From positions 26,553 through 90,552 of the forward strand of contig CAJQNK010000123.1 of assembly GCA_905479655.1 (NCBI GenBank): a stretch of DNA of 64,000 nucleotides. Direction: 5' to 3'. Below are positions 2,909-50,099 of this stretch, piece after piece (positions within the stretch are counted from its first letter, which is position 1; each line of letters starts with the position of its first letter). The position numbers and the translations under genes were made by a program. The notes below the pieces were generated by a model that was not told the DNA's origin, ran no database searches, and saw only the letters and a list, made by a program, of their open reading frames with translations. This DNA is from an uncultured bacterium (lineage in GTDB: Bacteria > Acidobacteriota > Thermoanaerobaculia > Multivoradales > JAHEKO01).

Positions 2909-3916
2909 TCAGCTCTCGCCCGAGGGGTCCGCGACGGCCACGACCCGGTCGCTCCAGGCCAGACGCCGCCGTCCCGCCTCCTTCGCCCGGTACAGCGCCA
3001 GGTCGGCTCGTTCCAGCAGTCGCTCCCAGGGCTCGTCGGCCGCGGCCCGAGCGCCTCCCATGCTCACCGTGACGACCACGGGCCGGCCTGCCGTCTCCGG
3101 CCGCAGGCCGCCCAGGGCCTCGAGCAGGGCGCGCGCCCGCAGGACGGCCTCCCGCTCGCCCAGGCCCGGCAGGACCACCGCGAACTCGTCTCCCCCCAGG
3201 CGCGCGGCGATGTCGTCGGCCCGAACGGCGCCCCGGAGCGCCTCCGCGACGAGGCGCAGCACCTGGTCGCCGAAGGCGTGCCCCCAGCGGTCGTTGATCG
3301 CCTTGAAGCGATCGACGTCCACGACGACGAGCGCGAGACTGCGCCCGGGCTCGTCCTCCCGCGCCCGATCCAGCAGGGCTCGGAGGCCGCGGCGGTTGGC
3401 GAGCCCGGTGAGCTCGTCGGTGAGCGCGAGGGCGTGGTGCTGGTCGCGCTCGCGGCGGGTGCGGCGCAGCGAGCCGAGCGTTCGCTCGAGCTCGGTGTTG
3501 CGCGCCCGCAGGTCGTCGATCAGCCGGCGCTCGGAGATCACCAGATAGGCGCAGCAGCGGCGCAGGACACGGAGCAGCACCTGCGGACTCTCGGCCTCCA
3601 GTCGCTCGATGCTGGAGGGGCCGAGCTCGCGGACGGTGCAACCCACCCCGGCCGCCGCATCGGCGGTGCGGCGGTGGGAGCCCAACACCAGGGCGAGCTC
3701 CCCGAACAGCTCGCCGGCCGCGAGCCGCTTCTCGTGCTTCTCGGCGCCGAAGCGCAGGACGACCTCTCCCCCCTCCACGACGAACATGGAATCGCCGTCG
3801 TCGCCGCGGCGGAAGAGGGGCTCGCCGGGCTCGAGATCGCGGGCGACGCCGAGACGGCCGAGAGTGTCGAGAACGTCCGGCGCGAGGCGCAGGTCGGGAG
3901 CTCCGTCAGTGGACAT
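2909..3916 (-). CDS. Cyclic-nucleotide-binding domain fused to GGDEF diguanylate cyclase
   Basis: N-terminal cNMP-binding signature (FVVEGGEV...GELFGELAL) and C-terminal GGDEF domain (RLGGDEFAV, RYGGEEF-type context, ALYRAKEAG). Confidence 0.8.
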   Translation of the reverse strand: MSTDGAPDLRLAPDVLDTLGRLGVARDLEPGEPLFRRGDDGDSMFVVEGGEVVLRFGAEKHEKRLAAGELFGELALVLGSHRRTADAAAGVGCTVRELGPSSIERLEAESPQVLLRVLRRCCAYLVISERRLIDDLRARNTELERTLGSLRRTRRERDQHHALALTDELTGLANRRGLRALLDRAREDEPGRSLALVVVDVDRFKAINDRWGHAFGDQVLRLVAEALRGAVRADDIAARLGGDEFAVVLPGLGEREAVLRARALLEALGGLRPETAGRPVVVTVSMGGARAAADEPWERLLERADLALYRAKEAGRRRLAWSDRVVAVADPSGES

Positions 3917-4255
3917 CGGGCGGGTGGCCGGGTGGGGAAGGTGGAACAGGGGACGAGCGCTGTCGAGCGAGAGGTCGTGCGGGCGTCGGGTCGTTGGTCC
4001 GGGAGGCGGCCTCGACTATACTCCGCGCTTCGGGAGGAAGGTCACCCGGAGGGCCGCGCCAGGGGTGCCCCATGGGATCGATCGAGCCGGTGCGGGGCCG
4101 AGGGACGCCGAGGAGCGACCCGGGGCGGCTCCGCCCGGACGGACGCGATCCGGGGCGGGAGTCGCGGCTCGTTCCTCGAGGGACCTCCGGAGCCTACGGA
4201 CCGTCCTTCGAGCCTCCCTCTTGTCCACTGCGGTCATTTGAACCGAGGAGATTCC

Positions 4256-5905
4256 ATGTCGGAGCGACCCAACTCCATCTGCCCATCCGGAGAGAGCTTC
4301 CCCCTGCCGGACGTCGACGACTACCACGCAGAGTTCGAGCGTCTGAAGGCGCTCGCCACCGAGAATCGCCGACAGGGACGCGAGGTCGTCGTCGTCGTGG
4401 GCGTCGGCTTCGTCGGCGCCGTGATGGCCGCCGTGATCGCCGATGCGGAGCACGAAGACGGGACCCCATCCAAGTTCGTCCTGGCCATGCAGCGGCCCAG
4501 CGTGCGCAGCTACTGGAAGATCCCGCTGCTCAACCGCGGTCTCTCGCCGGTCAAGGCCGAGGATCCGGAGGTCGACGAGATGATCCAGCGCTGCGTCGTC
4601 GACAAGAGGACGCTGGTGGGCACGTTCACCCACGAGGCGCTGCGCCTGGCCGACGTCGTCGTGGTCGACGTCCAGTGCGACTATCTCAAGGAGGAGTTGG
4701 GGAACGTGCGCAACGGCGCCGCGGATCTCGAGGCGCTCAAGGCCTCCATGGCGACGATCGCCGAGAACGTCGAGCCGGACGCCCTGGTCCTGATCGAGAC
4801 GACGGTCCCGCCGGGCTTCACCGAGAACGTGGCGTTCCCGATCATGAAGCAGATCTTCGACCATCGGGGCATCCTGTCGGATCCGCTGCTCGCCCACAGC
4901 TACGAGCGCATCATGCCGGGCCGCCAGTACGTCTCGTCGGTGCGTGACTTCTGGCGGGTCGCGAGCGGCAACAACGCCGAGGCGCGGGAGCGGGTGACCA
5001 CCTTCCTGCAGGAGGTCCTGAACACCGAGGAGTACCCGCTGACGGTCCTCGACCGGCCGCTCGAGTCCGAGACCGCCAAGATCATCGAGAACAGCTACCG
5101 CGCGACGCTCCTGGCCTTCATGGACGAGTGGTCGACCTTCGCCGAGCGCCAGGGGATCGACCTGCGGAAGGTGATCGAGGCGATCAAGGTGCGGCCCACG
5201 CACTCGAACATCATGTTCCCCGGCCCCGGCGTCGGCGGCTACTGCCTGCCGAAGGATGGCGGCCTCGGCGTGTGGGCCAACCAGCACATCCTCGACGACG
5301 AGGACGGTCCCTTCCGCATCACGCCGATCGCGATCGACATCAACGACCGGCGGGGCCTCCGGGTGCCGATCCTGGCGGAGGAGGGTCTGGCGGCGTTGGG
5401 GCGCTCGATCTCCGGAGCCGAGGTGGCGGTCCTGGGGGCGGCCTACCGCGAGGACGTCGGCGACACCCGCTACAGCGGCTCGGAGATGGTGGTGCGCAAG
5501 CTCGCGGAGATGGGCGCTCGAGTGCGGGTGCACGACCCGTATGTCGAGTCCTGGGCCGAGTTCGAGACCCAGGACACCTACCCCCAGTCCCGCCACAGCT
5601 GGGCCCGTTTCTTCGACGGGCAGGAGGGCCTCTCCGAGCTCGTGGTGCAGTCCGATCTCGACGCGGTGCTGAAGGGCGCGGACGTTGTCGTCCTGGCCGT
5701 GCGGCACCAGGCCTACCTCGACCTCCAGCCGGACGACATGGTGCGCCGGGTCGGCCAGCCCTTCGCCGTGGTCGACTGCTTCTGCATCCTGTCCGACGCG
5801 GGGATCAGCCGTCTCTTCGAGGCCGGTTGCGAGGTTCGGGGTCTCGGCCGCGGTCACGTCCACCGGTTGCGCGACGAGGTCCGGCGGCGGGCGGAGGAGA
5901 GTTAG
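4256..5905 (+). CDS. UDP-glucose/GDP-mannose dehydrogenase family (nucleotide-sugar dehydrogenase)
   Basis: Real gene is the 3' part of the 1476-aa ORF 1475..5905; ATG at 4256 preceded by GAGGAG; Rossmann GVGFVGAVMAAVIA and catalytic GGYCLPKD. Confidence 0.85.
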   Translation: MSERPNSICPSGESFPLPDVDDYHAEFERLKALATENRRQGREVVVVVGVGFVGAVMAAVIADAEHEDGTPSKFVLAMQRPSVRSYWKIPLLNRGLSPVKAEDPEVDEMIQRCVVDKRTLVGTFTHEALRLADVVVVDVQCDYLKEELGNVRNGAADLEALKASMATIAENVEPDALVLIETTVPPGFTENVAFPIMKQIFDHRGILSDPLLAHSYERIMPGRQYVSSVRDFWRVASGNNAEARERVTTFLQEVLNTEEYPLTVLDRPLESETAKIIENSYRATLLAFMDEWSTFAERQGIDLRKVIEAIKVRPTHSNIMFPGPGVGGYCLPKDGGLGVWANQHILDDEDGPFRITPIAIDINDRRGLRVPILAEEGLAALGRSISGAEVAVLGAAYREDVGDTRYSGSEMVVRKLAEMGARVRVHDPYVESWAEFETQDTYPQSRHSWARFFDGQEGLSELVVQSDLDAVLKGADVVVLAVRHQAYLDLQPDDMVRRVGQPFAVVDCFCILSDAGISRLFEAGCEVRGLGRGHVHRLRDEVRRRAEES

Positions 5906-5933
5906 CGAACGGTCGCCCTGGTAGGCTCGTACC

Positions 5934-7577
5934 GTGCGGAGGCCCCGGAGAGGTAGCGCAGCGGTTGTGAGGTGGATCCGGGGCTGCGTCTGGATCGCGC
6001 TGGCGCTCGTTGCGGCCGGCGCCGCGGCGGAGCCTTGGCCGTCGCCCATCCTCGGCGACGGTCCGCTGGGGCGTTGGGCACGACCCCGCGTCCTGCGGGA
6101 CGCCCCGGTGCCGGTGCCGTCGCCGCCGGGCGATCTCTGGACCCCGTCCGGGCCCCCGGGGCCTCCCGGGCCACCGCAGCCACCCCCGGGCCCCGTGCCG
6201 CCCCCCGGTCCGGCGCCACCGCCCGGTCCGGGGGGCGACCCGCCGCCCGGCGCGCTGCCGGCGTTTCCCGGAGCCGAGGGGTTCGGCGCCACGACGCCGG
6301 GTGGGCGAGGGGGGAAGACCCTCTTCGTCACCCAGCTGGGGGATTCCGGCCCCGGCTCGCTGCGGGAGGCGCTGCGGACCGCCGGCCCGCGGACGATCGT
6401 CTTCCGGGTCGCCGGGGTGATCCGGCTGACGAGCCCCGTCTACCTGGGGGGCGCCCCGGCGGAGCCGGCGACGCCGGAGGAGCACAGCTTCGTCACCGTG
6501 GCGGGCCACTCGGCTCCCGGCGGCGGGGTCACGATCGCCGACGGCTCGCTCATTCTGCGCAACGGGGTTCACGACGTCGTGCTCCGGCACCTGCGCTTCC
6601 GCAACGCCCGGCGGTCGATCGACGCCGAGCCGCGCTCACCCGGGGACGGGATCGACCTGCAGACGGCCTCGCGGGTGGTGGTCGACCACTGCTCGTTCTC
6701 CTGGGCGACCGACGAGAACTTCAGTGCCGAGCGGTTCGTCAACCGGGACGTCACCGTGCAGTTCAGCCTGGTGGCGGAGGGTCTGGCCGACGGGGGACAC
6801 GAGGCCGGCGTCCATAGCCGGGGGATGAACCTCAGCCGCGGCGCGGACCGCTTCTCCGTGCATCACAATCTCTTCATCGCCAACAACATGCGCAACCCGC
6901 ACCTGAACGGCTGCAACGGCAACCCGGCTTGCGCGCTGAACCCCGAATGGTCCGTGGCGCCGGTCTTCGACGTGCGCCACAACGTCGTCTACAACTGGTC
7001 GCGCCGGGCGAGCCACCTGTCGTTCGGAGCGCGGGCGAACCTCGTCGGCAACCTCTACCTCCCGGGCCCCTCGACGCCGAGGGGATCGCCGCCGATCTAC
7101 TTCCAGGACTCGGACCGGGGAACGGAGGCGTGGGTCGAGGGCAACGCCAGCGAGGCTCTCCCCGGGGCGCCGCAGGTGGATCTGGTGGGCTTCATGGAGC
7201 CTCCCCTCACGGGTCTGCTCCCGGCGCCGATCCCGGCGCCGTTCGTCTCGCCGACGCCGGTCGAGCTCCTGGAGGAGCTCGTGGCGGACGCCGTGGGCGC
7301 CCTGCCCCGCGACTCGGTCGACCTGAGACTGCTCTCCGACCTCGCCGAGCGTCGGGGCGCCTCCGGAGCCCCGGGGCGGACCCACGACACGCCCCTGCCG
7401 ACGCCGACGCTCGGTACGCCCTACGAGGACACCGACCAGGATGGCATGGAAGACGCCTGGGAGCGGGTCCAGGGTCTGGATCCCCTGGACCCGGCGGACG
7501 GGGTGGGGGATCTGGACGGAAACGGGTACTCGAACCTGGAGGAGTTCCTGGAGAGCCTGATCCAGCCGACGGCCTGA
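5934..7577 (+). CDS. Secreted pectate-lyase-like protein (PL1-type fold) with Pro/Gly-rich collagen-like linker
   Basis: AFPGAEGFGATTPGGRGG N-terminal pectate lyase signature and VVVDHCSFSW; signal-peptide-like WIALALVAAGAAA; alternative GTG start at 5967. Confidence 0.7.
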   Translation: MRRPRRGSAAVVRWIRGCVWIALALVAAGAAAEPWPSPILGDGPLGRWARPRVLRDAPVPVPSPPGDLWTPSGPPGPPGPPQPPPGPVPPPGPAPPPGPGGDPPPGALPAFPGAEGFGATTPGGRGGKTLFVTQLGDSGPGSLREALRTAGPRTIVFRVAGVIRLTSPVYLGGAPAEPATPEEHSFVTVAGHSAPGGGVTIADGSLILRNGVHDVVLRHLRFRNARRSIDAEPRSPGDGIDLQTASRVVVDHCSFSWATDENFSAERFVNRDVTVQFSLVAEGLADGGHEAGVHSRGMNLSRGADRFSVHHNLFIANNMRNPHLNGCNGNPACALNPEWSVAPVFDVRHNVVYNWSRRASHLSFGARANLVGNLYLPGPSTPRGSPPIYFQDSDRGTEAWVEGNASEALPGAPQVDLVGFMEPPLTGLLPAPIPAPFVSPTPVELLEELVADAVGALPRDSVDLRLLSDLAERRGASGAPGRTHDTPLPTPTLGTPYEDTDQDGMEDAWERVQGLDPLDPADGVGDLDGNGYSNLEEFLESLIQPTA

Positions 7578-7728
7578 GCCGATTTGCGCCGACTCGCCCT
7601 AGCTAGCCGCGCTGCGGCAAGAGGGCCAGGAAGGGGTGGGCGGCGTCCGTCCCGCGACGCGATGGCGGCTGCGAACTCCGCCTCCGCCGCTTCGCGGCAG
7701 GATTTCCCGGAGAGATCCCGAACGATCG

Positions 7729-7758
7729 CTTGTGAATTTCGTCACAAGGTCGTATACT
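7729..7758 (+). promoter_or_regulatory. Sigma70-like promoter: -35 TTGTGA (7730-7735), 17-nt spacer, -10 TATACT (7753-7758), overlapped by the perfect inverted repeat CTTGTGA-N6-TCACAAG (7729-7748)
   Basis: Read directly in a ~50% GC island inside a 70% GC genome. Confidence 0.45.
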
Positions 7759-7764
7759 GCGTTC

Positions 7765-7987
7765 AACAAGGAGCTCAGAGAGTTCCATGACGAGAACCGA
7801 CAGGAGGTCTCTCTCACCCACGCAGTTCCTTCCAACGCAGGACGGAGGCGCCTCGCGCTTCCGACCCACCGACACCATCCTGCCTGATTCCCCTTTACCA
7901 GGGGTAAATCCGAGACTTCCCACCACCTAGGCAGGGACCTCCATTCTCGCCTTGCGGGGCCGCGATTCGTCGCGGCCTTTGCCTTTT
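7765..7987 (+). ncRNA. Candidate small transcript (~220 nt) between promoter and terminator; contains a 47-codon ORF at 7787..7930 with upstream AAGGAG
   Basis: Promoter at 7730-7758, terminator at 7958-7987; the ORF MTRTDRRSLSPTQFLPTQDGGASRFRPTDTILPDSPLPGVNPRLPTT uses rare codons (AGA, AGG, TTA, GTA, AAT), so either a non-coding RNA or a small protein is possible. Confidence 0.3.
7958..7987 (+). terminator. Rho-independent terminator: 8-bp GC stem GGCCGCGA/TCGCGGCC with UUCG tetraloop, followed by TTTGCCTTTT
   Basis: Read directly from sequence; a second 9-bp hairpin GAGGGCCGG...CCGGCCCTC follows at 7988-8021. Confidence 0.6.
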
Positions 7988-8039
7988 GAGGGCCGGCCGG
8001 CGCGCGCGTCGTCCGGCCCTCTTCGTGTCCGCCCGCCGC

Positions 8040-10184
8040 TCAGGGACGCGACCAGGCCCGGGCCAGGGGCGCCACGGCCGGCGCGCCGTCCACGCCGGAC
8101 AGGCGCGACGCCGACGCCGCGGCGCTCTCGAGGGCGCGCGCGGCCTCCACGCCGCCGCGGCCCGTGCGCAGCAGGGCGATCCCGCGCCAAAGGTCCACGG
8201 TCCCCCGCCCGAGGCCCGGCCCCGACGGCGGCTCCAGGGTGCCGAGACGGTCCGCGGCGGCGTCGGGGCGATCGGCCCGGAGGAGGACGAGTGCGCGCAG
8301 CAGCTCCGTGAGCCAGGGGGAGGCGGTGGTGACCTCCGGGGTGTCCGGGCAGGCGAGGACGGCCCACAGGGCCGGGTCCGGCGGACCCCCTCCGTCGGCC
8401 GGGACCAGGGTCGGCACGGGGACGGGAAGCAGTGTGCGGGGGGTCCGGACCGGGCCGCGATGGGTGTCGAGGGTGAGCTCGCCGGCGCCCTCGGCGACGA
8501 GGCTGCGGAAGCTCTCCAGGGTTGCGGGGAGATCGCCCACGGCCGCGATCCGGTCGCCCGGCGCGAGGCCCGCCCGGGCGCCGGGGCCCTCGGCGGCGAC
8601 CGCCACCACCCGCAGGCCGTCCTTCCCGGGGATCTCGACGAGATCGACACCCGTCCACGGAGTGGAGAAGACGATCGGCCGCTCGAGCTCCCGGAGCCAC
8701 GGGGCCTTCCCGGTGCGCGAGTCGATGGCGAAGCGCCGGTGCCAGGGTCGGGCCGGACCGGGTCCTGCCGACCACAGCCACAGGTCCGCCACGTCGGCGT
8801 AGGGCGCTCCGCGCACGGTCACGAGCAGGTAGGCGGAGCCTCCCACCTCGGAGTCGAGGCGGGCCTGCAGGGCGGTCCAGCCGTCGCCCGGGGGTGGCAG
8901 CGCGGCCACGCGCCACGGCTCGTCTCCGAGATGCGCCCAGTCGATGGTCTCGAGACCGAGGGCCGGCTCGGGCTGGCCGTCGTCGTCGGCGGCGGAGGAG
9001 AAGAACCAGCGCTCGGAGCTCCCCAGGTTCTGGGCGATCTGGCCCGCGAGCTCGATCCCCGCGACCCGGTCCTCACCCCCGAAGCCCAGGAACACGAGGG
9101 ACGGGCGCAGGCGCACCAGGAGCCCGACCTCCTGGCGGTCGGCCAGCGGCACCAATCGGCTCCAGGCGCCGCGGGCGCCGGCGCGCACCTCCAGGCGGTA
9201 GCTCCCCGGCGCCAGGGTCAGGACGGCGTCGGCGCCGTCGCCGTGGGCCACGCGCTGTCCGTCGAGGGTCAACGACGAGCCCTCGGGGATGTCGGCGACG
9301 ACGATCCGGCCCCGCGCCGGCTCGAGGACGATCGCCGGTAGACGGTAGTCGGCGAGGCGGTCGAGACGCAGGGCGAGGGTCCGCGGGCGATGACCCGGCG
9401 CCGAGACGGTGACCCGATGGGCGCCGAGCTCGACGGCGACGAGGCGTTCGCCGTTCGCCGAACCTGCGCCATCGCCGGCGGGCGCGCCGTCGACCCGGAC
9501 GGTCGCGCCGGCCGGTCGGACCGAGAGAGACAAGGTCGGAGCGACGCGCTCGAGGTCGGCCTTCAGGACCTCGTCCGCGCTCGCTCCGACGGTGATCCGC
9601 TCCTCGAGAGGCAGGAAGCCGGGGCGTTCGACCCGCACGAGGCGCTCCCCCGCGAGCAGGGGGACCTCGGTCCGCCCGCTCTCGATCTCGACACCGTCCA
9701 CGAGCACCCGGGAGTCCGCCGGGCCGACGCGCAGGATCAGCCGGCCCACCGAGGAGGCTCGCAGGTCCTCGAGGGTCGAGACCAGCTTGGGGGAGACCCG
9801 CTCCTCGTCCAGGCGGAAGCCCGGGTCGATCGTGAGCAGCGTCGCGAGGTCCCGGCTCGCGGCGGGCCCGTCGCCCAGGTTGAAGAGGGCCTCCGAGCGC
9901 AGGGCGAGAGCGCGGGCCAGGATCTCGAGCAGGGCCGGGTCCTCGGCGGTGGCCACGGCGTCGCCCGCGAGCTCGTCGATCACCCGGGAGAGCAGCGGGA
10001 TCGACTCCGGCTGGTCGACCGAGCGGAAGCGCGCCATGGCCTCGTCCATCGAGCTCCGCATCTCGCTCTCGAGGTCCCGCTCCAGGTCCTCGACGACCAT
10101 CTGCCCCCGGACCGGCGGGGGCGCCGAGGCCAGCCCGGCGAGGACGGCGAGGAGAGCGAGCAGGAAGGGCAGCCGGGTCGTCAT
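8040..10184 (-). CDS. Secreted multidomain protein: signal peptide, TPR-like region, three PEGA-like domains, PDZ domain
   Basis: C-terminal 715 codons of the listed 1220-aa ORF; real start ATG at 10184 (MTTRLPFLLALLAVLAGLASA signal peptide) forms an ATGA overlap with the upstream stop; PEGA-like LILRVGPADSRVLVDGVEI...; PDZ-like GLRVVAVAAEGPGARAGLAPGDRIAAV. Confidence 0.7.
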   Translation of the reverse strand: MTTRLPFLLALLAVLAGLASAPPPVRGQMVVEDLERDLESEMRSSMDEAMARFRSVDQPESIPLLSRVIDELAGDAVATAEDPALLEILARALALRSEALFNLGDGPAASRDLATLLTIDPGFRLDEERVSPKLVSTLEDLRASSVGRLILRVGPADSRVLVDGVEIESGRTEVPLLAGERLVRVERPGFLPLEERITVGASADEVLKADLERVAPTLSLSVRPAGATVRVDGAPAGDGAGSANGERLVAVELGAHRVTVSAPGHRPRTLALRLDRLADYRLPAIVLEPARGRIVVADIPEGSSLTLDGQRVAHGDGADAVLTLAPGSYRLEVRAGARGAWSRLVPLADRQEVGLLVRLRPSLVFLGFGGEDRVAGIELAGQIAQNLGSSERWFFSSAADDDGQPEPALGLETIDWAHLGDEPWRVAALPPPGDGWTALQARLDSEVGGSAYLLVTVRGAPYADVADLWLWSAGPGPARPWHRRFAIDSRTGKAPWLRELERPIVFSTPWTGVDLVEIPGKDGLRVVAVAAEGPGARAGLAPGDRIAAVGDLPATLESFRSLVAEGAGELTLDTHRGPVRTPRTLLPVPVPTLVPADGGGPPDPALWAVLACPDTPEVTTASPWLTELLRALVLLRADRPDAAADRLGTLEPPSGPGLGRGTVDLWRGIALLRTGRGGVEAARALESAAASASRLSGVDGAPAVAPLARAWSRP

Positions 10185-11692
10185 TCGATCACCACCACTC
10201 CCCGCAGGCCGCGGTCCGCGATGTACAGACGGCCGGCGCCGTCGACGGCGAGGTCCTGGGGCGCGTCCAGCCGGACGCCGCCCGGAAGATCGGGGCCGAG
10301 ACGCTCCAGGAGCTCGCCGGAGGCCGAGTAGACGCCGACGCTCCGGGAGCCTCGGTCGAGCACGTAGACGTTCGCGGCGGAGTCCACGGCGAGGGCGGCC
10401 GGTCGCTGGCCCACGCCGAGCGCGACGGTGCCGAGGGCCGACCCGTCCGCGGCGAAGCGCTCGACGGCGGATCGTTTCCGGTCCAGCACGTAGAGGCAGC
10501 CGGCGACTCCCGCGGCGACGTCCGCCGGCTCCGTGCTCGTCGGCGAGACGAGGTCCCGGGGAGTCGAGCCTGGCGAGGACGGGAACAGCGTGACCCGGCC
10601 GCGGCCCCAGAGGACCGCGACGGCGCCCGCCCCGGAGGGCGCTCCAGCCTCGAGGTCCGCGGCCTGCCGATCGGGTCTCGCCGGGTCGGCCAGGGCGGTG
10701 TCCTCGGCCGGGTTGAGGGAGAGGAGGGCGTCGCCCGCGGCGAGCCACGCCGCACCGTCGGCGCCCCAGAAGGGCCGTCCGGAGGGCAGGTCGTCGCGCC
10801 GCGCGGCGATCCGTCCGCCGTCGTCGAGGACGAGGAGGGCGTCGAGCGATCGGTCGCTCACCAGGAGTCGCCCCTCGTCGTCGACGGCGACGCCCTCCGG
10901 TCTCCGGAGCTCCGCGCCCAGGACCCGCGCCGTCCTCCATCGACTCTCGCCGGCCAGGGGGCGGACGACCAGCCTCTCGACCAGGGCGAGTCTCCGCCCG
11001 GCTCGCGCCGCCTCGCTGCCTTCGGCCCCTCGGTCGCGCACGCTCTGCAGGTGCCGGGCCGCGTCGGCCCACTCGCCCCGGGCCAGGAGGATCTCGGCCA
11101 GGCCGACGGCGGCCCGCTCCGACCAGGGTGAGGCCAGGGTGTCGAGAAGCGCCGCGGCGAAGGCCGCCTCGGCGGCGAGCGAGTCGCCGAGCCGACGGTC
11201 GATCTCTCCGATCCGCACCTGGGCGGCGACGCGCCAGGGGAGCCCGGGCCAGCGGCCGACGGGGTAGGTTTGGACGACCTCGCGAAAGCCGCGGCGGGCC
11301 GCCTCGAGGTCGACGCCGGAGCCCACGGCCTGGAGGTCGAGGTCCGCGACCAGCCACCGCGCCCCGGCCGCCCACGGTGTCTCGGGCTGGACCCGGGCCA
11401 GCTCCGCGGCGCGCCGTCTCGCGGCGTCCCGGAGCCCGAGCCGACGCTCGACGTGGGAGGCCTCGAGGCTGGCGGCCGCGGCCGTCGGCCCGTCCCCGTC
11501 GCCCGCCAGATCGACGTAGGCGCGCAACGCGTCGTCGAGCCGCCCCGCGTCCGCGAGCCGCGCGGCCGCCTCGAGGGCGCGTTCGCCGGCCGGTGGCAGG
11601 GCACGGGCGCCCTGGCCCGACCCCAGCGCCAGGAGCACCGTCAAGAAGGCCAACCCGAGGCGGCCGGGGAGGTGCCGGAGGAGAGGCGTCAT
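10181..11692 (-). CDS. Secreted TPR plus NHL-repeat (six-bladed beta-propeller) protein
   Basis: Start MTPLLRHLPGRLGLAFLTVLLALG (ATG at 11692, ATGA overlap with upstream stop); NHL-like blades (LYVLDRKRSAVERF, VYVLDRGSRSVGVY, LYIADRGLRGVVVIE). Confidence 0.75.
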   Translation of the reverse strand: MTPLLRHLPGRLGLAFLTVLLALGSGQGARALPPAGERALEAAARLADAGRLDDALRAYVDLAGDGDGPTAAAASLEASHVERRLGLRDAARRRAAELARVQPETPWAAGARWLVADLDLQAVGSGVDLEAARRGFREVVQTYPVGRWPGLPWRVAAQVRIGEIDRRLGDSLAAEAAFAAALLDTLASPWSERAAVGLAEILLARGEWADAARHLQSVRDRGAEGSEAARAGRRLALVERLVVRPLAGESRWRTARVLGAELRRPEGVAVDDEGRLLVSDRSLDALLVLDDGGRIAARRDDLPSGRPFWGADGAAWLAAGDALLSLNPAEDTALADPARPDRQAADLEAGAPSGAGAVAVLWGRGRVTLFPSSPGSTPRDLVSPTSTEPADVAAGVAGCLYVLDRKRSAVERFAADGSALGTVALGVGQRPAALAVDSAANVYVLDRGSRSVGVYSASGELLERLGPDLPGGVRLDAPQDLAVDGAGRLYIADRGLRGVVVIE

Positions 11693-12753
11693 CCGCCCGC
11701 ACCCCCGCCCGTGGCGGAGACGACGAAACGCTCGGTCTCCGGCGTCACCTCGACCTCGACCGTCCGCTGGGCGCCCAGTTGGTCCCAGACGAAGGTGAGC
11801 TGGTGCGAGCCGAGGGGCAGGGCGACGTCCGCGGGCAGCCAGTCGATCTCCCGGCCGTCGACGGACAGCCGGCAGCGGCTCGGTTGCGCCATGACCCGTA
11901 CGGTGACGACCCCCGGCAGCCGGAGGTCGCGGGTCTCGTTCGGCGCTAGGTCGAGGGTGAGGCGCTCCTCGTAGACGACGGAGGCGCTGCGCAGCACCAC
12001 CTCGCGCCGGCCGGGCTTGAGGGAGATGGCCTGTCGGCCCTCGACGTTCCAGGTCTGGCCGCCGGTGGTGAGGCGGACCGGGAAGGGCGCGTGGACCACC
12101 AGGGTGGCGGGTAGGACGACCTCGCGCAGCGGGAAGAACAGCTCTCGCTGCTCGCGCTGGGAGTCGCGCAGGTCCGCGAGACGAAAGGTGAGGCTCTCTT
12201 CGTGAAAGTCTGCGAGCTCGATTCTCAACCGATGCCTGGCGTCGGGGTCGAGCGCCACGGTCAGCGGCGTGACCCCCGGGAGGTGCTGGTCGCCGAGGTA
12301 GACGGTGGCCCCCGCGGGCCGGCTGACGACGCGGAACTCGACCGGGGGGCGTTGGAGACGGGGCACCCAGCGCTCCGGCAGGCCGGGACCCACCTCGACC
12401 TCGCGCTCGGCGACGATCTCGCCGTCGCGCACCAGGTAGATGCTCGCCGTCCGTCCCTCGGGCCCCTCGAGCTGCACGGTGGTCGGCGTCGTGCCGCGGG
12501 TGGACCCGTCCACGAGGATCTCGACCCCCGTGGGGTCGCTGGAGACCTCCAGGGGCCAGGTGGCGACGGCCGGGGGCTCCGGCTCCGGACGGGAGAGTGG
12601 TGGAGCCGCGAACCAGGCGGCCAGGCCCAAGGCGGCGAGGATGCCGATCGCCGCGACCCAACGTCCCAGCCGCGGCGGCCGGCGTCGGGGGCGCTCGGAT
12701 CCGCGGCGGGTCGGCCGGGACGAGGTCGAAAGCTCCAATTCGTCGATGTTCAA
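11689..12753 (-). CDS. Single-pass membrane protein with periplasmic PEGA domains
   Basis: Arg-rich N-terminus, TM helix WVAAIGILAALGLAAWFA, PEGA motifs (VEILVDGSTRGTTP, ATVYLGDQHLPGVTP); TTG start at 12753 (no in-frame ATG); start uncertain. Confidence 0.6.
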   Translation of the reverse strand: MNIDELELSTSSRPTRRGSERPRRRPPRLGRWVAAIGILAALGLAAWFAAPPLSRPEPEPPAVATWPLEVSSDPTGVEILVDGSTRGTTPTTVQLEGPEGRTASIYLVRDGEIVAEREVEVGPGLPERWVPRLQRPPVEFRVVSRPAGATVYLGDQHLPGVTPLTVALDPDARHRLRIELADFHEESLTFRLADLRDSQREQRELFFPLREVVLPATLVVHAPFPVRLTTGGQTWNVEGRQAISLKPGRREVVLRSASVVYEERLTLDLAPNETRDLRLPGVVTVRVMAQPSRCRLSVDGREIDWLPADVALPLGSHQLTFVWDQLGAQRTVEVEVTPETERFVVSATGGGAGG

Positions 12754-12923
12754 GGGCCTCTCCAGCGGCTCATCATAGCGTCCGCGTTCCGCTCTCGGGC
12801 CGGGGCCCGGGGGTCTCGGCCTGGGGTATCCTTCGCGACGTTGCCTCGACTGATTTTCCCGAAGCCGGCGTTCCCGCCGATCTGCCGGCGCCGGTGACTC
12901 CCGATTCGGAGGTCTCTCCCCCC

Positions 12924-14180
12924 GTGTCCGATCCTCGTTCAGGTCGTCGTATCGCGCTGCTCTGCCAGCACTTCTATCCCGAACTGATCTCGACCGGCAT
13001 GCACATGACGGAGCTGGCCGAGAGCCTGACGCGTCTCGGTTGGCAGATCACCGTCTTCTGCGCCCAGCCGACCCTGGATCTCGAGGGGAAGAGCGAGAAG
13101 GTGCCCCGCGAGATCGAGCACGAGGGGGTCCGCGTGCTGCGGGTCTCCGCCTGGGGCTCGCACGGCGCCGGCCTCGCCGCCCGGCTGGCGTTCGCCGTCA
13201 CCTACCTGCTGTCGACCCTCGTGGCCGTCTTCCGCCACCGCCGTTCGTTCGATGCGGTCCTGGTGACGACCAACCCGCCGTTCCTGGGCCTCGTGGGGCG
13301 CATCCTCCGGCTCGTCGGGGGGCCGCCCTACGCCGTCATCGTGTACGACGTGTACCCGGACCTGGCGGTGCGGCTCGGCGTCCTCGGCCGGCGCTCTCCC
13401 GCGGCCTGGCTCTGGGAGCGCGTCACGCGGACGATCCTGAAGGGGGCGGCGAGCCTGGTCGTCATCGGCCGGGACATGGAGAAGCTGATCCGGGGCAAGC
13501 TCCCGGCCCGGCTCCACGGCCTCACGACCCTGATCCCCAACTGGTCCGACGAGAGCCTGGTGCGGCCCGTGCCGCGCGACGAGAACCCGTTCCGGGCGGA
13601 GCACGGTCTCCAGGAGCGCACCGTCGTCCAGTACTCGGGGCGCATGGCGCGGACCCACAACCTGGAGCCGCTCGTCGAGGCGGTGGAGCACCTGCGGGAT
13701 CTGCCGATCACGGTGCTCATGATCGGCGACGGGGCCAAGAAGAAGGTGTTGCAGCGCATCGCCGAGGAGCGGGGGCTCGACAACGTCATGTTCCTGCCGT
13801 ACCAGCCGCGGGAGCACCTGCACGAGGTGCTGTCGGCGGCCGATCTGGCGGTCGTCTGCCTGGGGAGCCGCTACACGGGGGTCTCGGTGCCCAGCAAGAC
13901 CTACGGCATCATGGCCGCCGGCGTGCCGATCCTGGCCTTCGTCGATCGGGAGAGCGAGATCGGCCTCGCCGTCGAGGAGGAGGCCTGCGGGTTCGTGCTG
14001 CCCGATCCCACCCCGGAGGGCGTCGCCGAGCTGTTGGCGGGTCTGGCCGCCGAGCCCGAGCGTCTGGAGGCCATGGCGGCGGCGAGCCGCCGTGCCTTCG
14101 AGTCGAACTACACCCTGAGCCTGTCGGCGCGGCGCTACTCGGAGATGCTCGAGCGGGTGATCGCCGGGGGGACGGAGTGA
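12924..14180 (+). CDS. Glycosyltransferase family 4 (GT-B)
   Basis: GTG start at 12924 after GGAGG; N-terminal IALLCQHFYPE, C-terminal GT4 E-x7-E region (PSKTYGIMAAGVPILAF); the 5' part of the listed ORF 12597.. is non-coding. Confidence 0.8.
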   Translation: MSDPRSGRRIALLCQHFYPELISTGMHMTELAESLTRLGWQITVFCAQPTLDLEGKSEKVPREIEHEGVRVLRVSAWGSHGAGLAARLAFAVTYLLSTLVAVFRHRRSFDAVLVTTNPPFLGLVGRILRLVGGPPYAVIVYDVYPDLAVRLGVLGRRSPAAWLWERVTRTILKGAASLVVIGRDMEKLIRGKLPARLHGLTTLIPNWSDESLVRPVPRDENPFRAEHGLQERTVVQYSGRMARTHNLEPLVEAVEHLRDLPITVLMIGDGAKKKVLQRIAEERGLDNVMFLPYQPREHLHEVLSAADLAVVCLGSRYTGVSVPSKTYGIMAAGVPILAFVDRESEIGLAVEEEACGFVLPDPTPEGVAELLAGLAAEPERLEAMAAASRRAFESNYTLSLSARRYSEMLERVIAGGTE

Positions 14181-15235
14181 GACTCCTGGTGACCGGCTCG
14201 GCCGGTTTCATCGGCTCGGCGCTGGCGCCGCTCCTGGCCGCCGCCGGCCACCAGGTGGCGGGCGCCGACCGCCGGAGCGGAGACGGCCTGGGCCTGGAGC
14301 GCCAGGTACGGGGGGATCTCCTGGATCCCTCGGTCCTGGAGGATGCCCTCGACGGCCCCGATCCCGAGCGGAACCCCGGGGTCGACGCGGTGCTGCACCT
14401 GGCGGCCGCCAAGGACGACTGGGGACTGGCCCCGGAGGAGTTCCATCGCGACAACATCGAGCTGACGGAGAAGCTGGTGGAGTCCGGTGGACGTCGGGGT
14501 GTCGAGAGCTGGATCTTCCTGAGCACGGTCGCCGTCATCGGGCCGAGCTCGGAGGCCGCGACGGAGGAGACCCCGGCCGAGGCCACCGACCCGTACGGGG
14601 GCTCCAAGGTGGCCGGCGAGCGCCTGTTTCGGGAGCTGGCCCGGCAGGACCCGGCGGTGCGGGTCGGAGTCCTCCGACCCTCGATCGTCTACGGCCCGGG
14701 CAACTACCCCTACACGAACATCTACCGCCTGATCGAGGCGCTCCACACCGGCCGCTTCGTGATGATCGGGCGGGGGGAGACGCTGAAGACCTTCTCCTAC
14801 GTCGAGAATCTCAACGCGGCCACCGTCTGGCTCCTGGAGCACCTGCGCCCAGGAGTCCAGACCTACATCTGCGTCGACGAGCCGCGGCTCACGACCCGCC
14901 ATCTCGTGGACCGGCTCTGCGACCTGCTCGGCCGCCGCCCGCCCCGTGCCTACCTCCCGCGGTGGATCGCCGAGCCGCTGGCCTGGCCGGCCGACCTGGC
15001 GGCCCGCTGGACCGGGATCAACTTCCCGATCACGGCGGCTCGGGTGCGCAAGTTCTGCACGCCGACCAACTACGATCCGGCGGCGCTCCTGGCCGCCGGT
15101 TTCGACCCCCCGGTGGACAACGACGAGGCCCTCCGACGGACCGTCGAGTGGCATCTCGCGGAGCGGGAGCGACTTCGGGGCCTGCCGCGGAAGAGCGACC
15201 TGCCCGGGCATTCGGACGGGCACTCGGACGTCTGA
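14177..15235 (+). CDS. NAD-dependent epimerase/dehydratase (SDR family)
   Basis: GTG start overlaps the GT4 stop (GTGA); LVTGSAGFIGS Rossmann motif and YGGSK catalytic Tyr/Lys. Confidence 0.8.
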   Translation: MRLLVTGSAGFIGSALAPLLAAAGHQVAGADRRSGDGLGLERQVRGDLLDPSVLEDALDGPDPERNPGVDAVLHLAAAKDDWGLAPEEFHRDNIELTEKLVESGGRRGVESWIFLSTVAVIGPSSEAATEETPAEATDPYGGSKVAGERLFRELARQDPAVRVGVLRPSIVYGPGNYPYTNIYRLIEALHTGRFVMIGRGETLKTFSYVENLNAATVWLLEHLRPGVQTYICVDEPRLTTRHLVDRLCDLLGRRPPRAYLPRWIAEPLAWPADLAARWTGINFPITAARVRKFCTPTNYDPAALLAAGFDPPVDNDEALRRTVEWHLAERERLRGLPRKSDLPGHSDGHSDV

Positions 15236-22217: not shown

Positions 22218-24299
22218 ATGCGACCCAAGAAGCTCGGGGAGAGCGTCCTCCTCTCCGTTCTGCTCTCCCTCCCCTTCGCCCTCTCGGCGACGGGCGGCAT
22301 CGCGGGCCCCGGCCTGCTGCCTCTGCCTACGACGGCGAACGACTTCCTCCAACCCGGAACGCAGCCCGAGACGCTGGACGAGGCGATCTTCGACTCCAAC
22401 GACTGCCGCGACTGCCACGGTGACTACGACCTCGAGGTCGAGCCGTACGGGCGCTGGAAGGGCAGCATGATGGCCCAGTCGTCCCGCGACCCGGTCTTCT
22501 GGGCCTGCCTCGCCATCGCCAACCAGGACGTGAACGGGGTCGGGGAGATCTGCCTACGCTGCCACACGCCCAGCGCGTGGTTGGGCGGGCGCAGCGACCC
22601 GCCGGACGGCTCGGCGCTGGACCCGGCGCAGGGCGACTTCGACGGCGTCACCTGCCACGTCTGCCACCGCCTGGTCGACCCGGTGTTCGATCCGGACGAG
22701 AACCCGCCGGTGGACGAGGAGGTGCTGGCGGCGCTGCCGCTGGTGCCCGGGGAGCCTCATACGGCCCAGTACATCATCGATCCCATCGACCGGCGCCGCG
22801 GGCCTTTCGTCCTGTTTCCCGGCTTCCCCTGGCACCGTTGGGCGCAGTCGCCCTTCCACCGCGAGGCGATGCTGTGCGCCAACTGCCACGACGTCTCGAA
22901 TCCGGCTCTCTCCCGGCAGGAGGACGGCACCTACAAGCTCAACGAGCTCGACACCCCGCACCCGACCCACGACAAGCAGGACGAGTTCCCGATCGAGCGC
23001 ACCTTCACCGAGTGGAAGCTCTCCTCGTTCGGGCAGGCCGAGATCGACGTCGACGGGCGCTTCGGGGGCAACAAGCCGGCGGTCTCGACCTGTCAGGACT
23101 GCCACCTCGAGGACCACACCGGGGAGGCGTGCAAGCCCGGGGTCGGCGGGACCCAGCGCGACGACATGCCCCTCCACAACTTCAACGGCGCCAACTCCTG
23201 GGTGATCGCGGCCGTCCGCACCCTGTACCCGGACGCGGAGACGGGACTCACGGACGAGATCGCCGACGCGGCCCTGGCGCGCAACGTCTCGATGCTGGAG
23301 CGGGCCGGCGATCTCGAGGTCTTCCTGCGCGACGGTCAGCTCGTGACCCGGGTGATCAATCGCACGGGGCACAAGCTGCCGACGGGTTACGGCGAGGGGC
23401 GCCGCATGTGGCTCCACGTCGAGTTCCTCGACGAGGTGGGCCAGCTCCTGGAGGACCGCGGCCACTACGACGCCGAGACGGCCACCCTGACGACGGACGA
23501 CACCCGGGTCTACGAGTCGCATCAGGGCCTGGACGACTACATGGCCGAACAGACGGGACTGCCGGCGGGGGAGAGCTTTCACTTCGTCCTCAACAACACC
23601 GTCTACAAGGATAACCGGGTTCCCCCCCGCGGCTTCGTGAACGCGGTGTACGACGAGCACCAGACCGGGGTCGTGGATCACGTCTACGCGGACGAGCAGT
23701 ACTGGGACGACGCCCTCTTCGATCTGCCCCAGGGCACCGCCAGCGTCCGCGTCACCCTCTACCACCAGACGACCTCGCGCGAGTACATCGAGTTCCTGCG
23801 CGACGAGAACCGCACCAACGACCGGGGCCAGATCGCCCACGACGTCTGGGTCGAGCAGGGACGGAGCGCTCCGGTCCCGATGTCGAGCGTCGAGGTGGAC
23901 GTCGCCGTGGGCGCCTGCCCCCAGCCGATCGTCTACGGCCTGGGCAACGTCGCCTCCAACGGCGATCGCGCGCGGCTCGGCTGGAGCGGCACGCCCAGCG
24001 TGGCGGCCGGGGACTTCGTCGTCGAGCTCTCCGGCGCGGTGCCGGGTCGCGCGACGCTGCTCGTCGGCGACGGCACGGCGAGCGAGCCGTTCGAGGCGGG
24101 CACGCGGCTGGTGGCGGCGCCGCGTCGGGTGGTGAGCTTCACCGTCGCCGCCGACGGCACCGCATCCGTCCCCGTGCCCCTCGCCGGACACCCCGGCCTG
24201 GCGGGTCGAGAGATCACCGTGCAGGTTCTCTTCGAGGACTCCGTCGGCGGCTCCCGGGCCAGCCTGAGCGACGCCCTTCACATCGACATCTGTCCCTAG
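22218..24299 (+). CDS. Secreted pentaheme c-type cytochrome
   Basis: AAGGAG then ATG at 22218; signal peptide; five CxxCH motifs (CRDCH, CLRCH, CHVCH, CANCH, CQDCH) plus a heme-free ~250-aa C-terminal domain. Confidence 0.8.
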   Translation: MRPKKLGESVLLSVLLSLPFALSATGGIAGPGLLPLPTTANDFLQPGTQPETLDEAIFDSNDCRDCHGDYDLEVEPYGRWKGSMMAQSSRDPVFWACLAIANQDVNGVGEICLRCHTPSAWLGGRSDPPDGSALDPAQGDFDGVTCHVCHRLVDPVFDPDENPPVDEEVLAALPLVPGEPHTAQYIIDPIDRRRGPFVLFPGFPWHRWAQSPFHREAMLCANCHDVSNPALSRQEDGTYKLNELDTPHPTHDKQDEFPIERTFTEWKLSSFGQAEIDVDGRFGGNKPAVSTCQDCHLEDHTGEACKPGVGGTQRDDMPLHNFNGANSWVIAAVRTLYPDAETGLTDEIADAALARNVSMLERAGDLEVFLRDGQLVTRVINRTGHKLPTGYGEGRRMWLHVEFLDEVGQLLEDRGHYDAETATLTTDDTRVYESHQGLDDYMAEQTGLPAGESFHFVLNNTVYKDNRVPPRGFVNAVYDEHQTGVVDHVYADEQYWDDALFDLPQGTASVRVTLYHQTTSREYIEFLRDENRTNDRGQIAHDVWVEQGRSAPVPMSSVEVDVAVGACPQPIVYGLGNVASNGDRARLGWSGTPSVAAGDFVVELSGAVPGRATLLVGDGTASEPFEAGTRLVAAPRRVVSFTVAADGTASVPVPLAGHPGLAGREITVQVLFEDSVGGSRASLSDALHIDICP

Positions 24300-33604: not shown

Positions 33605-34375
33605 TCAGCGGGCCTGCGGGTCGGCGGGGGAGAGGAGCGACCCGGCGCGCTCGAGGATGCTCGTGACGAAGCCCGTCAGGGCTTCGCGGTCGGCTCGGCT
33701 CATCCTCACGAAGCGCACGCCGAGACGGATCCGGCTTGCCGTCTCGTCCTTCACGCCCTCCGCCGGTACGAGCTTCGGCGATGCCGGCGGCTCCATCGAG
33801 TAGATCCCCTCTCCTTCAGCGCGGAGTCGCAGACCCTCTTCCAGGGTGATGTCCAGCCGCAGGGTCTGGCCGACCAGCCCGTGTCGCGCCTCGTCGGGGT
33901 ACGGGATCTCGATGAGCATGCCCCCGAGGCTGAGACTGATGACCTCGAACGAGGAGCCGCCCTCGAGGTCGACCTCGGAGCCCTCGTCGAGCGCGAACCG
34001 CCCGAACAGCCGCGGGTCGGGCGAGACCACGGCCCGCTCGCCGAGGAAATCGATCCACTCGCGGCCGTCGTCCGAGAGGATGTCCCGGAAGCGGATCCCG
34101 GCTCGATAGACCGGGAAGATGTCTCCGGCGCCGTTTCTCTCGGTGCGGACGAGGGTGCACCAGACCACCCGGCCCGTGAGGCGCAGATCGCCCTCTTCCC
34201 GTGTCACCCGGAGGGAGTAGTCGCGGCCGACGCCCAGGTAGGTGTGGGTCTCGATCCCGACCCCGTTGACGCTGACATCGACGATGTCGACGTCGGCGTT
34301 GAGCGCGAAGTGACCGCGGATTCCCTCGACCTCGTATCGAGGGTGCGTGCGTCGATGGTGTTGTGCCTTTGCCAT
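33605..34375 (-). CDS. Tandem PilZ-domain protein (c-di-GMP receptor family)
   Basis: Start MAKAQHHRRTHPRYEV (RxxxR) ... DVSVNGVGIETH (D-x-S-x-x-G) and a second PilZ-like half. Confidence 0.6.
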   Translation of the reverse strand: MAKAQHHRRTHPRYEVEGIRGHFALNADVDIVDVSVNGVGIETHTYLGVGRDYSLRVTREEGDLRLTGRVVWCTLVRTERNGAGDIFPVYRAGIRFRDILSDDGREWIDFLGERAVVSPDPRLFGRFALDEGSEVDLEGGSSFEVISLSLGGMLIEIPYPDEARHGLVGQTLRLDITLEEGLRLRAEGEGIYSMEPPASPKLVPAEGVKDETASRIRLGVRFVRMSRADREALTGFVTSILERAGSLLSPADPQAR

Positions 34376-49385: not shown

Positions 49386-50099
49386 ATGGCCGCGATCCTG
49401 GGGTACCTGGTCATCGTCCTGCTCCTCGGAGCGCTCGTCCTGTTGCACGAGCTGGGGCACCTGCTCGCGGCCCGGGGGGTCGGCATCCCGGTCGCGCAGT
49501 TCTCCGTGGGCTTCGGCCCCGCGGTGTGGCGGCGCCGGTGGCGGGGAACGGAGTGGTGCCTGCGCATCGTGCCCCTCGGCGGGTACGTCGTCCCGTCCCT
49601 GGAAGAAGAGGAGTTTCGCAGCGTTCCCCTCGGGCGGCAGCTGACGTTCTTCCTCGGCGGGCCGGTGGCGAACCTGCTCGGCGCCGTGGGGCTCGCCTGC
49701 GCGCTGCAGCTCGCGAGGGAGGGCTGGTCGCTGTCTCTGCTGTGGCAGCCCATCGTCGAGACCTTCCGCTTCACCTGGGCGGTTCTCGGCTCCCTGTCGA
49801 CGCTCGCGGATCACCCGGAGACCGTCTCCGGTCCGATCGGGATCATCGCCCAGGGTTCCGGCTACGTCGTGGCCGGTGCGGGGGTCGAGCTGGCCCTGGC
49901 TCTCTCCGTCTCCCTCGCGATCCTGAACCTCCTGCCGGTGCCGATTCTCGACGGCGGCCAGATCGTCCTCGCCGGTCTCGAGGCGGCCTTCCCCCGGGTC
50001 GAGCGCCTGCGGCCGGCGCTGACCGTCGTGGGACTCGTTCTGGTCGGTGGCCTGATGCTCTTCGCGACCTGGCAGGACCTCGCCCGGCTGCTCACCTGA
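49386..50099 (+). CDS. Site-2 protease family (M50) membrane metalloprotease, no PDZ domain
   Basis: HELGH zinc motif in the first TM region, ...LNLLPVPILDGG... LDG motif. Confidence 0.8.
   Translation: MAAILGYLVIVLLLGALVLLHELGHLLAARGVGIPVAQFSVGFGPAVWRRRWRGTEWCLRIVPLGGYVVPSLEEEEFRSVPLGRQLTFFLGGPVANLLGAVGLACALQLAREGWSLSLLWQPIVETFRFTWAVLGSLSTLADHPETVSGPIGIIAQGSGYVVAGAGVELALALSVSLAILNLLPVPILDGGQIVLAGLEAAFPRVERLRPALTVVGLVLVGGLMLFATWQDLARLLT

Follow-up and report, generated by a model that had tools for sequence, protein, structure and literature searches.

The stretch of DNA analysed here (the window: 64,000 nucleotides (nt) of contig CAJQNK010000123.1 from an uncultured bacterium of the Thermoanaerobaculia, about 71% GC) contains three consecutive minus-strand genes, here called A, B and C, which form one tightly coupled gene unit. 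ATGA in the reverse complement at both junctions makes A/B and B/C 4-nt stop/start overlaps (Table 1). The starts of B (11692) and C (10184) were picked by a suffix-maximising codon-bias score for which the overlaps were not used as input, and the GC content at third (GC3, 0.91-0.93; 0.92 in gene A) and second codon positions (GC2, 0.50-0.58) of the three frames is the coding signature of a high-GC genome. Among the related loci compared with the window (L001-L024), L024 is a second assembly of the same organism (ENA ERZ23498415, scaffold SOLA22-1_SAMEA7060535_METAG-scaffold_178), with 100% identity over 4702 nt, and its gene caller gives products of 354, 503 and at least 711 amino acids (aa) with identical 4-nt overlaps. 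The reverse complement, the codon bias and these gene calls agree with an earlier note on this DNA, which had described three consecutive minus-strand genes joined by ATGA overlaps and had held that a single 1220-aa open reading frame (ORF) hides them; the 1220-aa ORF results from naively taking the longest frame and is, like the 826-aa ORF of the same mechanical list, a same-frame upstream extension. The same note took all three products to be exported or membrane-anchored, with which a transmembrane (TM) helix in A and signal peptides in B and C are in accordance, A being a predicted bitopic membrane protein and B and C predicted to be exported as soluble periplasmic proteins.

Protein A has a predicted N-in, C-out topology, because positive charges flank its TM helix on the N-terminal side (positive-inside rule). 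The cytoplasmic tail starts with LNIDELELSTSSRP, with RRRPPRLGRW further on, and its counterpart in the nearest relative, L001, is LSIDQLELSTPSRP. Both the tail and the TTG start, which has GGAGAGG in front, are kept in L001, and the conservation of the tail supports this start. The ectodomain of about 290 aa comprises two Pfam PEGA units (PF08308; 52.4 bits, E 4.9e-14, two stretches, gathering threshold 20.8), followed by a family-specific C-terminal half, which bears out the description of A as a single-TM protein with a PEGA ectodomain. No solved structure matched this ectodomain by sequence search. A has the layout of a eukaryotic-type Ser/Thr kinase (eSTK), with a single TM helix followed by an extracytoplasmic domain that is collinear with kinase ectodomains, and there is no Pfam match to Pkinase (PF00069), the eSTK catalytic domain, in A. 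With this domain absent, A itself does not belong to the eSTK family, and upstream of it only 170 bp are left before the divergent GT4 gene.

Protein B consists of a signal peptide (predicted AXA-type cleavage site GARA/LPP, with the lipobox Cys absent on reading of the sequence), a TPR-like helical solenoid and a six-bladed NHL beta-propeller. The AlphaFold2 (AF2) model has a predicted local distance difference test score (pLDDT) of 89.9 and a predicted template modelling score (pTM) of 0.86, with a disordered N-terminal signal-peptide region and 24 strands in the propeller, corresponding to six blades with pLDDT of about 90-97. NHL (PF01436) is matched with 53.2 bits (E 2.1e-14, cut-off 20), in accordance with a six-bladed propeller. 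The earlier assignment of B as TPR plus six-bladed NHL therefore stands for the NHL part; the TPR matches are under every Pfam cut-off (best TPR_19, 19.5 bits vs 25), and a TPR identity of this region is suggested by the helical repeat of the AF2 model and by profile matches. The family profile of B, compared with PDB sequences, matched PknD (7e-27), BamD (2.5e-8), CpoB (9e-8) and also designed TPR proteins, and the NCBIfam model ybgF (TIGR02795) scored 24.3 bits against a cut-off of 90.1. Foldseek matched the propeller to Pizza6 (TMt ~0.8; range 0.75-0.81 with PknD), TRIM2/3/71 and Thin, and to the Mycobacterium tuberculosis PknD ectodomain (1rwi) with TMt 0.75 and 24% identity. A weak PADLOC match to PD-T4-6 was also found at residues 372-452 of B (E 5.4e-5, 20 bits, profile positions 350-426 of 452), which probably reflects shared propeller-repeat similarity. 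A role in anti-phage defence was rejected, since this partial match is all that PADLOC gives for the trio, with none for A and C.

Protein C begins with a signal peptide (predicted AXA-type cleavage site GLASA/PPP, no lipobox Cys in the sequence as read), followed by a helical region (residues 38-145), three PEGA domains, an alpha/beta domain, a PDZ domain and a helical repeat (residues 603-712). The PEGA repeats (55.7 bits, E 4.7e-15, three stretches, threshold 20.8) and the PDZ domain (PDZ_6, 27.8 bits vs a cut-off of 27, E 2.2e-6, a marginal score) confirm the earlier description of C, which is richer than had been stated in its N- and C-terminal helical repeat domains and its 140-residue alpha/beta domain. 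With these, the Pfam domain scan upholds PEGA, NHL and PDZ, all above gathering thresholds. Relatives of C exceed the thresholds for both PDZ_2 and PDZ_6, and the family profile of C, compared with PDB sequences, matched the PDZ domains of DegP, DegQ, RseP and CtpA (best 7e-18). Foldseek matched C to tandem Ig-like repeats, the transthyretin-like domain of carboxypeptidase D and PDZ domains. The AF2 model of C (pLDDT 77.4) was built on an alignment of six sequences, which stayed shallow because the profile search for further homologues added only P0027 and proteins with PEGA and FGE-sulfatase domains. P0006, P0007, P0028 and P0030, the next-best matches of C after its true homologues, are likewise PEGA + FGE-sulfatase (PF03781) proteins, in which the common region is PEGA only.

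In the alpha/beta domain of C, the motif ADLWLWS is conserved in invariant alignment columns, and no Ser, His, Cys or Lys set suggesting catalysis is found among these columns. A weak Foldseek match of C to the lipoprotein GNA1162 (4hrv; 138 columns, TMt 0.50, E 0.018) appears to fall on this domain, judging by the matching size (the aligned residues are not given). No protease domain was found in C, with neither an S1C nor an S41 Pfam match and 11.4 bits for the NCBIfam prc model (TIGR00225) vs 218.6; C as an S41 C-terminal-processing or HtrA S1C protease was thus rejected, as the catalytic domain is absent next to the PDZ. Binding of the C-termini of A or B by this PDZ was also rejected, because on inspection their ends, VVVIE and GGGAGG, misfit the usual PDZ ligand classes.

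C is rare, with only five full-length homologues (29-53% identity) in 5.8 billion clusters, and about a dozen were found for B, one of them titled hypothetical protein of an Acidobacteriota bacterium. A genome scan with C alone found no relative. For the scan of one genome per species a trimmed alignment was used, the fuller alignment being too divergent for search patterns, and 13 loci were added, 12 of them from metagenome-assembled genomes (MAGs) of Acidobacteriota and one (L020) titled only 'uncultured bacterium'; the class of the Acidobacteriota loci, where given, is Thermoanaerobaculia, including Ca. Multivoradales. All loci were scored by our own hidden Markov models (HMMs) for kinase, PP2C, FHA, A ectodomain, B and C, with key proteins checked against Pfam, and collapsing duplicates left 17 distinct loci, window included.

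B lies directly upstream of C in 16 of these 17 loci, so that related genomes keep at least B and C, if not all three genes, together, a point that the earlier note had suggested checking. In 11 loci the gene immediately before B encodes an A-type ectodomain, and where the 5' part is readable this ectodomain is fused to a Hanks kinase in eight of ten; a kinase-less A-type gene followed by B and C occurs only in the window (with L024) and in L001. The order kinase::A-ectodomain, B, C is found in L003/L004 (5' cut), L006/L017, L011 and L013, and is preceded by PP2C in L002/L018, L010 and L015, and L005 has the longest string, PP2C, kinase, FHA, FHA, kinase::A-ectodomain, B, C. L014, cut at its 5' end, has A-ectodomain, B, C, and the remaining loci have PP2C, B, C (L007/L008, L009, L016), B and C alone (L020), B followed by a C-like protein with VWA and a second C-like protein (L021), or C alone (L019). 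A PP2C gene is present upstream in eight loci and two FHA genes in one, L005. Other neighbours vary by locus (Suf genes, fumarate reductase, ribosomal S12, TetR), the recurrent link across loci being kinase, PP2C and FHA only. According to the called gene models, the junction between the A position and B is a 4-nt overlap in L001, L002, L003, L005, L006 and L024, and that between B and C in L001, L007, L009 and L024, with mostly 6-16 nt gaps elsewhere and a called C start overlapping B by 38 nt in L005.

Two variations in the B and C proteins were seen among these loci. After B, L021 from a Ca. Multivorans MAG encodes a 1087-aa C-like protein (4597-7860, plus strand) with VWA_2 at residues 880-975, and then a 599-aa C-like paralogue. 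In L007, L008 and L009, which have PP2C-B-C and no A-type gene, B is a shorter protein of 432-436 aa, and in these A-less loci the first ~65 profile positions (~100 in L016), equivalent to the first TPR helices, are missing from it. That they are missing where the A-type gene is absent is a hint that B may contact A through its N-terminus.

The relation of A to the kinases of the other loci extends over its full ectodomain. By BLASTP, residues 68-347 of A are collinear with residues 368-644 of the L006 kinase (30% identity, E 2e-37), and residues 124-346 match the L002 kinase (36% identity, E 6e-37). The proteins at the A position in L002, L005 and L006 have both Pkinase (176-187 bits) and PEGA by Pfam, and the HRDxKxxN and DFG motifs are kept in the kinases of the relatives; judged by these motifs, the gene before B is usually a catalytically intact Hanks kinase. 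A HMMER search of 1.84 billion representatives with the A ectodomain gave 313 matches at E up to 1e-10, and kinase fusions were counted in the best 150 of these. The family-specific ectodomain is covered nearly end to end by 94 of the 150, of which 59 are kinase-fused, two have another long N-terminus, about nine are credible forms with a short tail and a TM helix, and the rest are fragments. The kinase has therefore been lost more than once, though its loss is the minority state. At the amino-acid level the window and L001 share 72% identity in A, about 60% in B and 53% in C, and as the best conserved of the trio the kinase-less A is its most constrained member, not a decaying remnant.

Here it is proposed, at about even chances, that the trio is the extracytoplasmic arm of a receptor Ser/Thr-kinase module, so far seen in Acidobacteriota MAGs only, mostly of Thermoanaerobaculia. 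This would place the three genes within receptor Ser/Thr-kinase signalling, an established type of system, of which the window has a kinase-less variant. The periplasmic interaction or scaffold complex suggested in the earlier note is compatible with all findings; its statement that the genes could not be assigned to a known system did not hold, given the kinase/PP2C/FHA context in the relatives. As periplasmic proteins, B and C would not be possible substrates of a cytoplasmic kinase, which would place them on the input side. B and C would dock on the PEGA ectodomain of A, and the A-B-C complex would bind an envelope-derived ligand or report the state of the envelope. In the relatives, the sensed state would determine how active the fused cytoplasmic kinase is, with the kinase signal then being reset by PP2C. 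In the window and L001, the complex could be a membrane-tethered scaffold or decoy, or it could signal via a partner encoded elsewhere, for which the tail of about 30 aa on the cytoplasmic side, conserved as xIDxLELSTxSRP, would be one candidate contact point.

Several points weigh against this proposal. The A-B-C assembly is one that we infer, the structures of B and C having been predicted as monomers only. No Hanks kinase, PP2C or FHA gene was detected in the 64-kb window with HMMs built for each, so that the signalling link in this genome is one of homology alone, and the A-less loci (PP2C-B-C, L020, L021 and L019) indicate that B and C do not strictly need an adjacent A. The sequences behind the evidence are all metagenome-assembled, and with so many Ser/Thr kinases in Acidobacteria fortuitous adjacency becomes more likely; such adjacency would, however, leave the shared ectodomain and the 4-nt overlaps unexplained.

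One of the closest known systems is M. tuberculosis PknD, a receptor Ser/Thr kinase with a fused six-bladed NHL sensor (PDB 1rwi/1rwl) and a precedent for the use of an NHL propeller in eSTK sensing. Like that of PknD, the propeller of B goes with a bitopic Hanks kinase, being encoded right after one in the relatives. Unlike in PknD, it sits in a soluble protein of its own, which also has a TPR domain, the kinase ectodomain in the relatives is PEGA-type, a third protein, C, is always present, and A of the window is without any kinase domain. To our knowledge, the extracellular input is unknown for almost all bacterial receptor Ser/Thr kinases, the NHL propeller of PknD included, and we know of no ligand for PknD itself. 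A tentative and less probable reading is that the trio forms a tripartite periplasmic receptor, a 'split PknD' with a separate NHL propeller and a PEGA/PDZ co-receptor, whose kinase-less form would be a pseudo-receptor. As such, the kinase-less A might titrate B and C from a kinase-bearing paralogue, or its conserved 30-aa tail might have been the means of rewiring it towards control of the polysaccharide genes next to it.

The A ectodomain is a full-length homologue, at 30-42% identity, of the PEGA-domain receptor Ser/Thr kinases of Acidobacteriota (Pkinase + PEGA); unlike these, A lacks the kinase domain of about 300 aa and the juxtamembrane region and keeps the 30-aa tail, a condition shared with L001 and the other credible short-tail representatives counted above. 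The ectodomain of PpkA, the kinase of type VI secretion systems (T6SS), is of the VWA type and not PEGA, and VWA occurs here in one C-like paralogue, that of L021. In the TagQRST-PpkA-PppA-Fha1 pathway of Pseudomonas aeruginosa, periplasmic accessory proteins are thought to act upstream of the Hanks kinase, in response to envelope perturbation (PMC7817224), which is a precedent for such accessories on the input side of a kinase, PP2C and FHA set. This pathway shares its logic with the proposed module in having a bitopic Hanks kinase, PP2C, FHA and periplasmic accessories, with the L005 string as its comparable arrangement. TagQ-, TagR- and TagS/TagT (ABC-type)-like genes are, in contrast, not among the annotations of the window or the related loci, nor are any T6SS genes annotated there, and no direct comparison with Tag sequences was run; the likeness is best regarded as an analogy of mechanism, not as family membership. 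With HtrA/DegP, RseP and CtpA, the best matches for the PDZ of C, and with CpoB and BamD, the best matches for the TPR region of B (~1e-8), the similarity appears to be at domain level only: C has no protease domain, and B has no lipobox and misses curated cut-offs widely. Membership of B in CpoB/YbgF (Tol-Pal) was rejected on its ybgF score and on the absence of tol and pal genes nearby. PEGA, NHL and PDZ are known domain families; what would be new is receptor Ser/Thr-kinase signalling with trans-acting periplasmic partners, here in a kinase-less form. No published description of the A-B-C module was found in the literature library that was searched.

Table 1. Positions in the window of the three genes, their domains and the features around them
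Feature	Positions	Strand	Details
Gene A	11689-12753	minus	354 aa, TTG start
Gene B	10181-11692	minus	503 aa
Gene C	8040-10184	minus	714 aa
ATGA overlap, A stop / B start	11689-11692	minus	reverse complement reads GGCGGATGACGCC
ATGA overlap, B stop / C start	10181-10184	minus	reverse complement reads ATCGAATGACGAC
Ribosome-binding site of gene A	12757-12763	minus	GGAGAGG
Cytoplasmic tail of A (predicted)			N-terminal ~30 aa, Arg-rich
TM helix of A (predicted)	12604-12660	minus	residues 32-50, WVAAIGILAALGLAAWFAA
Ectodomain of A	11710-12558	minus	residues 66-348; homologous to extracellular region of receptor Ser/Thr kinases from Thermoanaerobaculia
TPR-like helical domain of B	10955-11590	minus	residues 35-246; AF2, 11 paired helices, pLDDT >90
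NHL propeller of B	10187-10930	minus	residues 255-502; profile, AF2, Foldseek
Three PEGA-type beta-sandwich domains of C	9117-9749	minus	residues 146-356; Pfam, AF2, Foldseek
Alpha/beta domain of C	8682-9101	minus	residues 362-501, ~140 residues; AF2, without Pfam family
PDZ domain of C	8400-8675	minus	residues 504-595; Pfam, profile, AF2
Divergent intergenic region A/GT4 (putative promoter region)	12754-12923		170 bp; block GACGCTATGATG conserved in L001
GT4 glycosyltransferase	12924-14180	plus	divergent from A
NAD-dependent epimerase	14177-15235	plus	divergent from A
GC-rich hairpin	7956-7979		61 nt past C stop; T-run on plus strand only, hairpin + T-run 7956-7990
Pectate-lyase-like secreted protein	5934-7577	plus	convergent with C; Pro-rich N-terminus, acidic D-x-D-rich C-terminus
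UDP-glucose/GDP-mannose-type dehydrogenase	~4200 to 5905	plus	convergent with C
Cyclic nucleotide (cNMP)-binding GGDEF protein	2909-3916	minus	further out

The genes around the operon include several enzymes, in contrast to the earlier claim that no enzyme gene is adjacent: GT4 and epimerase genes lie beside A, and genes for the pectate-lyase-like protein and the UDP-sugar dehydrogenase beside C. KAS III and an ABC1/UbiB kinase are further neighbours. The arrangement of GT4, the dehydrogenase and a 553-aa neighbour recurs in L001 only, the other 15 loci being without sugar genes, and KAS III and ABC1 are likewise common to L001 and the window, which marks the polysaccharide context as retained ancestral synteny.

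Past C, the 460-bp spacer that leads up to the convergent pectate-lyase-like gene shares 82% identity with its L001 counterpart, above what would be expected of the flanking genes from their 53-72% amino-acid identity, the DNA identity of the genes being an expectation only. The stretch 7720-7995 (plus strand; L001 6895-7185, minus strand) has invariant blocks of 16-22 nt shared with L001. A TGTGA-N6-TCACA palindrome (CRP/FNR-type) at 7731-7746 overlaps a promoter-like TTGTGA-17-TATACT on the plus strand, on which the spacer also has a predicted stable nested fold (minimum free energy -87.4 kcal/mol, z -3.29, four compensatory pairs) and a 47-aa ORF (7787-7930), whose frame L001 keeps. The stem of the hairpin past C is conserved in L001 with one compensatory pair, and this hairpin is a possible end point of the operon transcript. 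With its T-run on the plus strand (7956-7990), it also has the make-up of a terminator at the end of the spacer element. Overall, the spacer resembles a small plus-strand gene, a candidate for a small RNA or a small protein, with two members, in the window and L001. No Rfam match was found for it at either threshold, no copy was found by nhmmer in the other related loci, and a metagenome scan with the element gave a single partial match.

Elsewhere in the 64 kb there are four sulfatase-family genes (36431-38662, 50120-52006 and 52085-54121 on the minus strand and 58012-60063 on the plus strand), two of which are fused to C-terminal TPR arrays, and among them a 1069-aa protein (54584-57793) has no Pfam match at all. 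A 693-aa exported protein (22218-24299, plus strand) with five CxxCH haem-binding motifs and a weak MtrC/MtrF-like match is followed by an FG-GAP repeat protein (24412-26301, plus strand). A PilZ-domain protein (33605-34375, minus strand) and a stand-alone M50 (site-2 protease family) peptidase (49386-50099, plus strand) are both unlinked to the operon.

Besides receptor-kinase signalling, the trio could be an envelope-biogenesis or tethering complex like Tol-Pal/CpoB, BamD or LpoB, in which B and C organise peptidoglycan or outer-membrane assembly and the kinase of the relatives only regulates this machine and is not its output. This is unlikely, with points in its favour in the BamD and CpoB profile matches and weak ybgF match of B, the weak fold match of C to GNA1162, the frequency of PDZ and TPR proteins in envelope quality control, and the occurrence of B-C without an A-type gene in L007/L008, L009, L016, L020 and L021. 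The ybgF score is, however, far under its cut-off, tol, pal, bam, lpo and PBP genes are linked in none of the loci, B and C lack a lipobox, and the recurring partners are kinase, PP2C and FHA. The surroundings would fit a scaffold with an accessory role in making, exporting or modifying exopolysaccharide, under common regulation with the sugar genes on either side: GT4 and the epimerase diverge from A over 170 bp, the dehydrogenase and the pectate-lyase-like protein converge on C, a cNMP-binding GGDEF gene is close by, the gene order around GT4 and the dehydrogenase recurs in L001, and TPR proteins are usual in exopolysaccharide export systems. Its probability is low, as sugar genes accompany the module only in L001, by inherited synteny, and not in the other 15 loci, and as Wza, Wzc, Wzx, Wzy and synthase genes are not present in the annotation of the window.

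It is similarly doubtful that C is an adaptor for regulated proteolysis, whose PDZ would capture exposed C-termini for an unlinked protease as in DegS/RseP or LbcA-CtpA. Although its PDZ is closest to those of DegP, DegQ, RseP and CtpA, Foldseek matched C to the CtpA-LbcA complex, and the window has an M50 peptidase gene, C has no protease domain by either Pfam or prc, its alpha/beta domain is without a conserved Ser, His and Lys set, and a protease gene is linked in no locus, the M50 gene being 39 kb off. That A, B and C are three unrelated exported neighbours, with overlaps due to compact high-GC packing, is very improbable: ATGA is the commonest operon junction in high-GC genomes and the domains are all generic interaction modules, but 16 of the 17 loci, in otherwise differing neighbourhoods, retain the gene order at identities as low as 28-30%, and at identities of 28-53% the related loci are not assembly duplicates of one lineage.

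If the interaction model fails, the trio would be an ordinary operon of generic interaction domains. If it holds, the propeller, the PDZ/PEGA protein and the kinase ectodomain would be separate polypeptides in a conserved, lineage-restricted module, which would open the sensing step to piecewise study, and the natural kinase-less variant would be a ready control for the periplasmic complex on its own. In Thermoanaerobaculia, which are known mainly through MAGs, the module may thus give three 'hypothetical' genes a function that can be tested.

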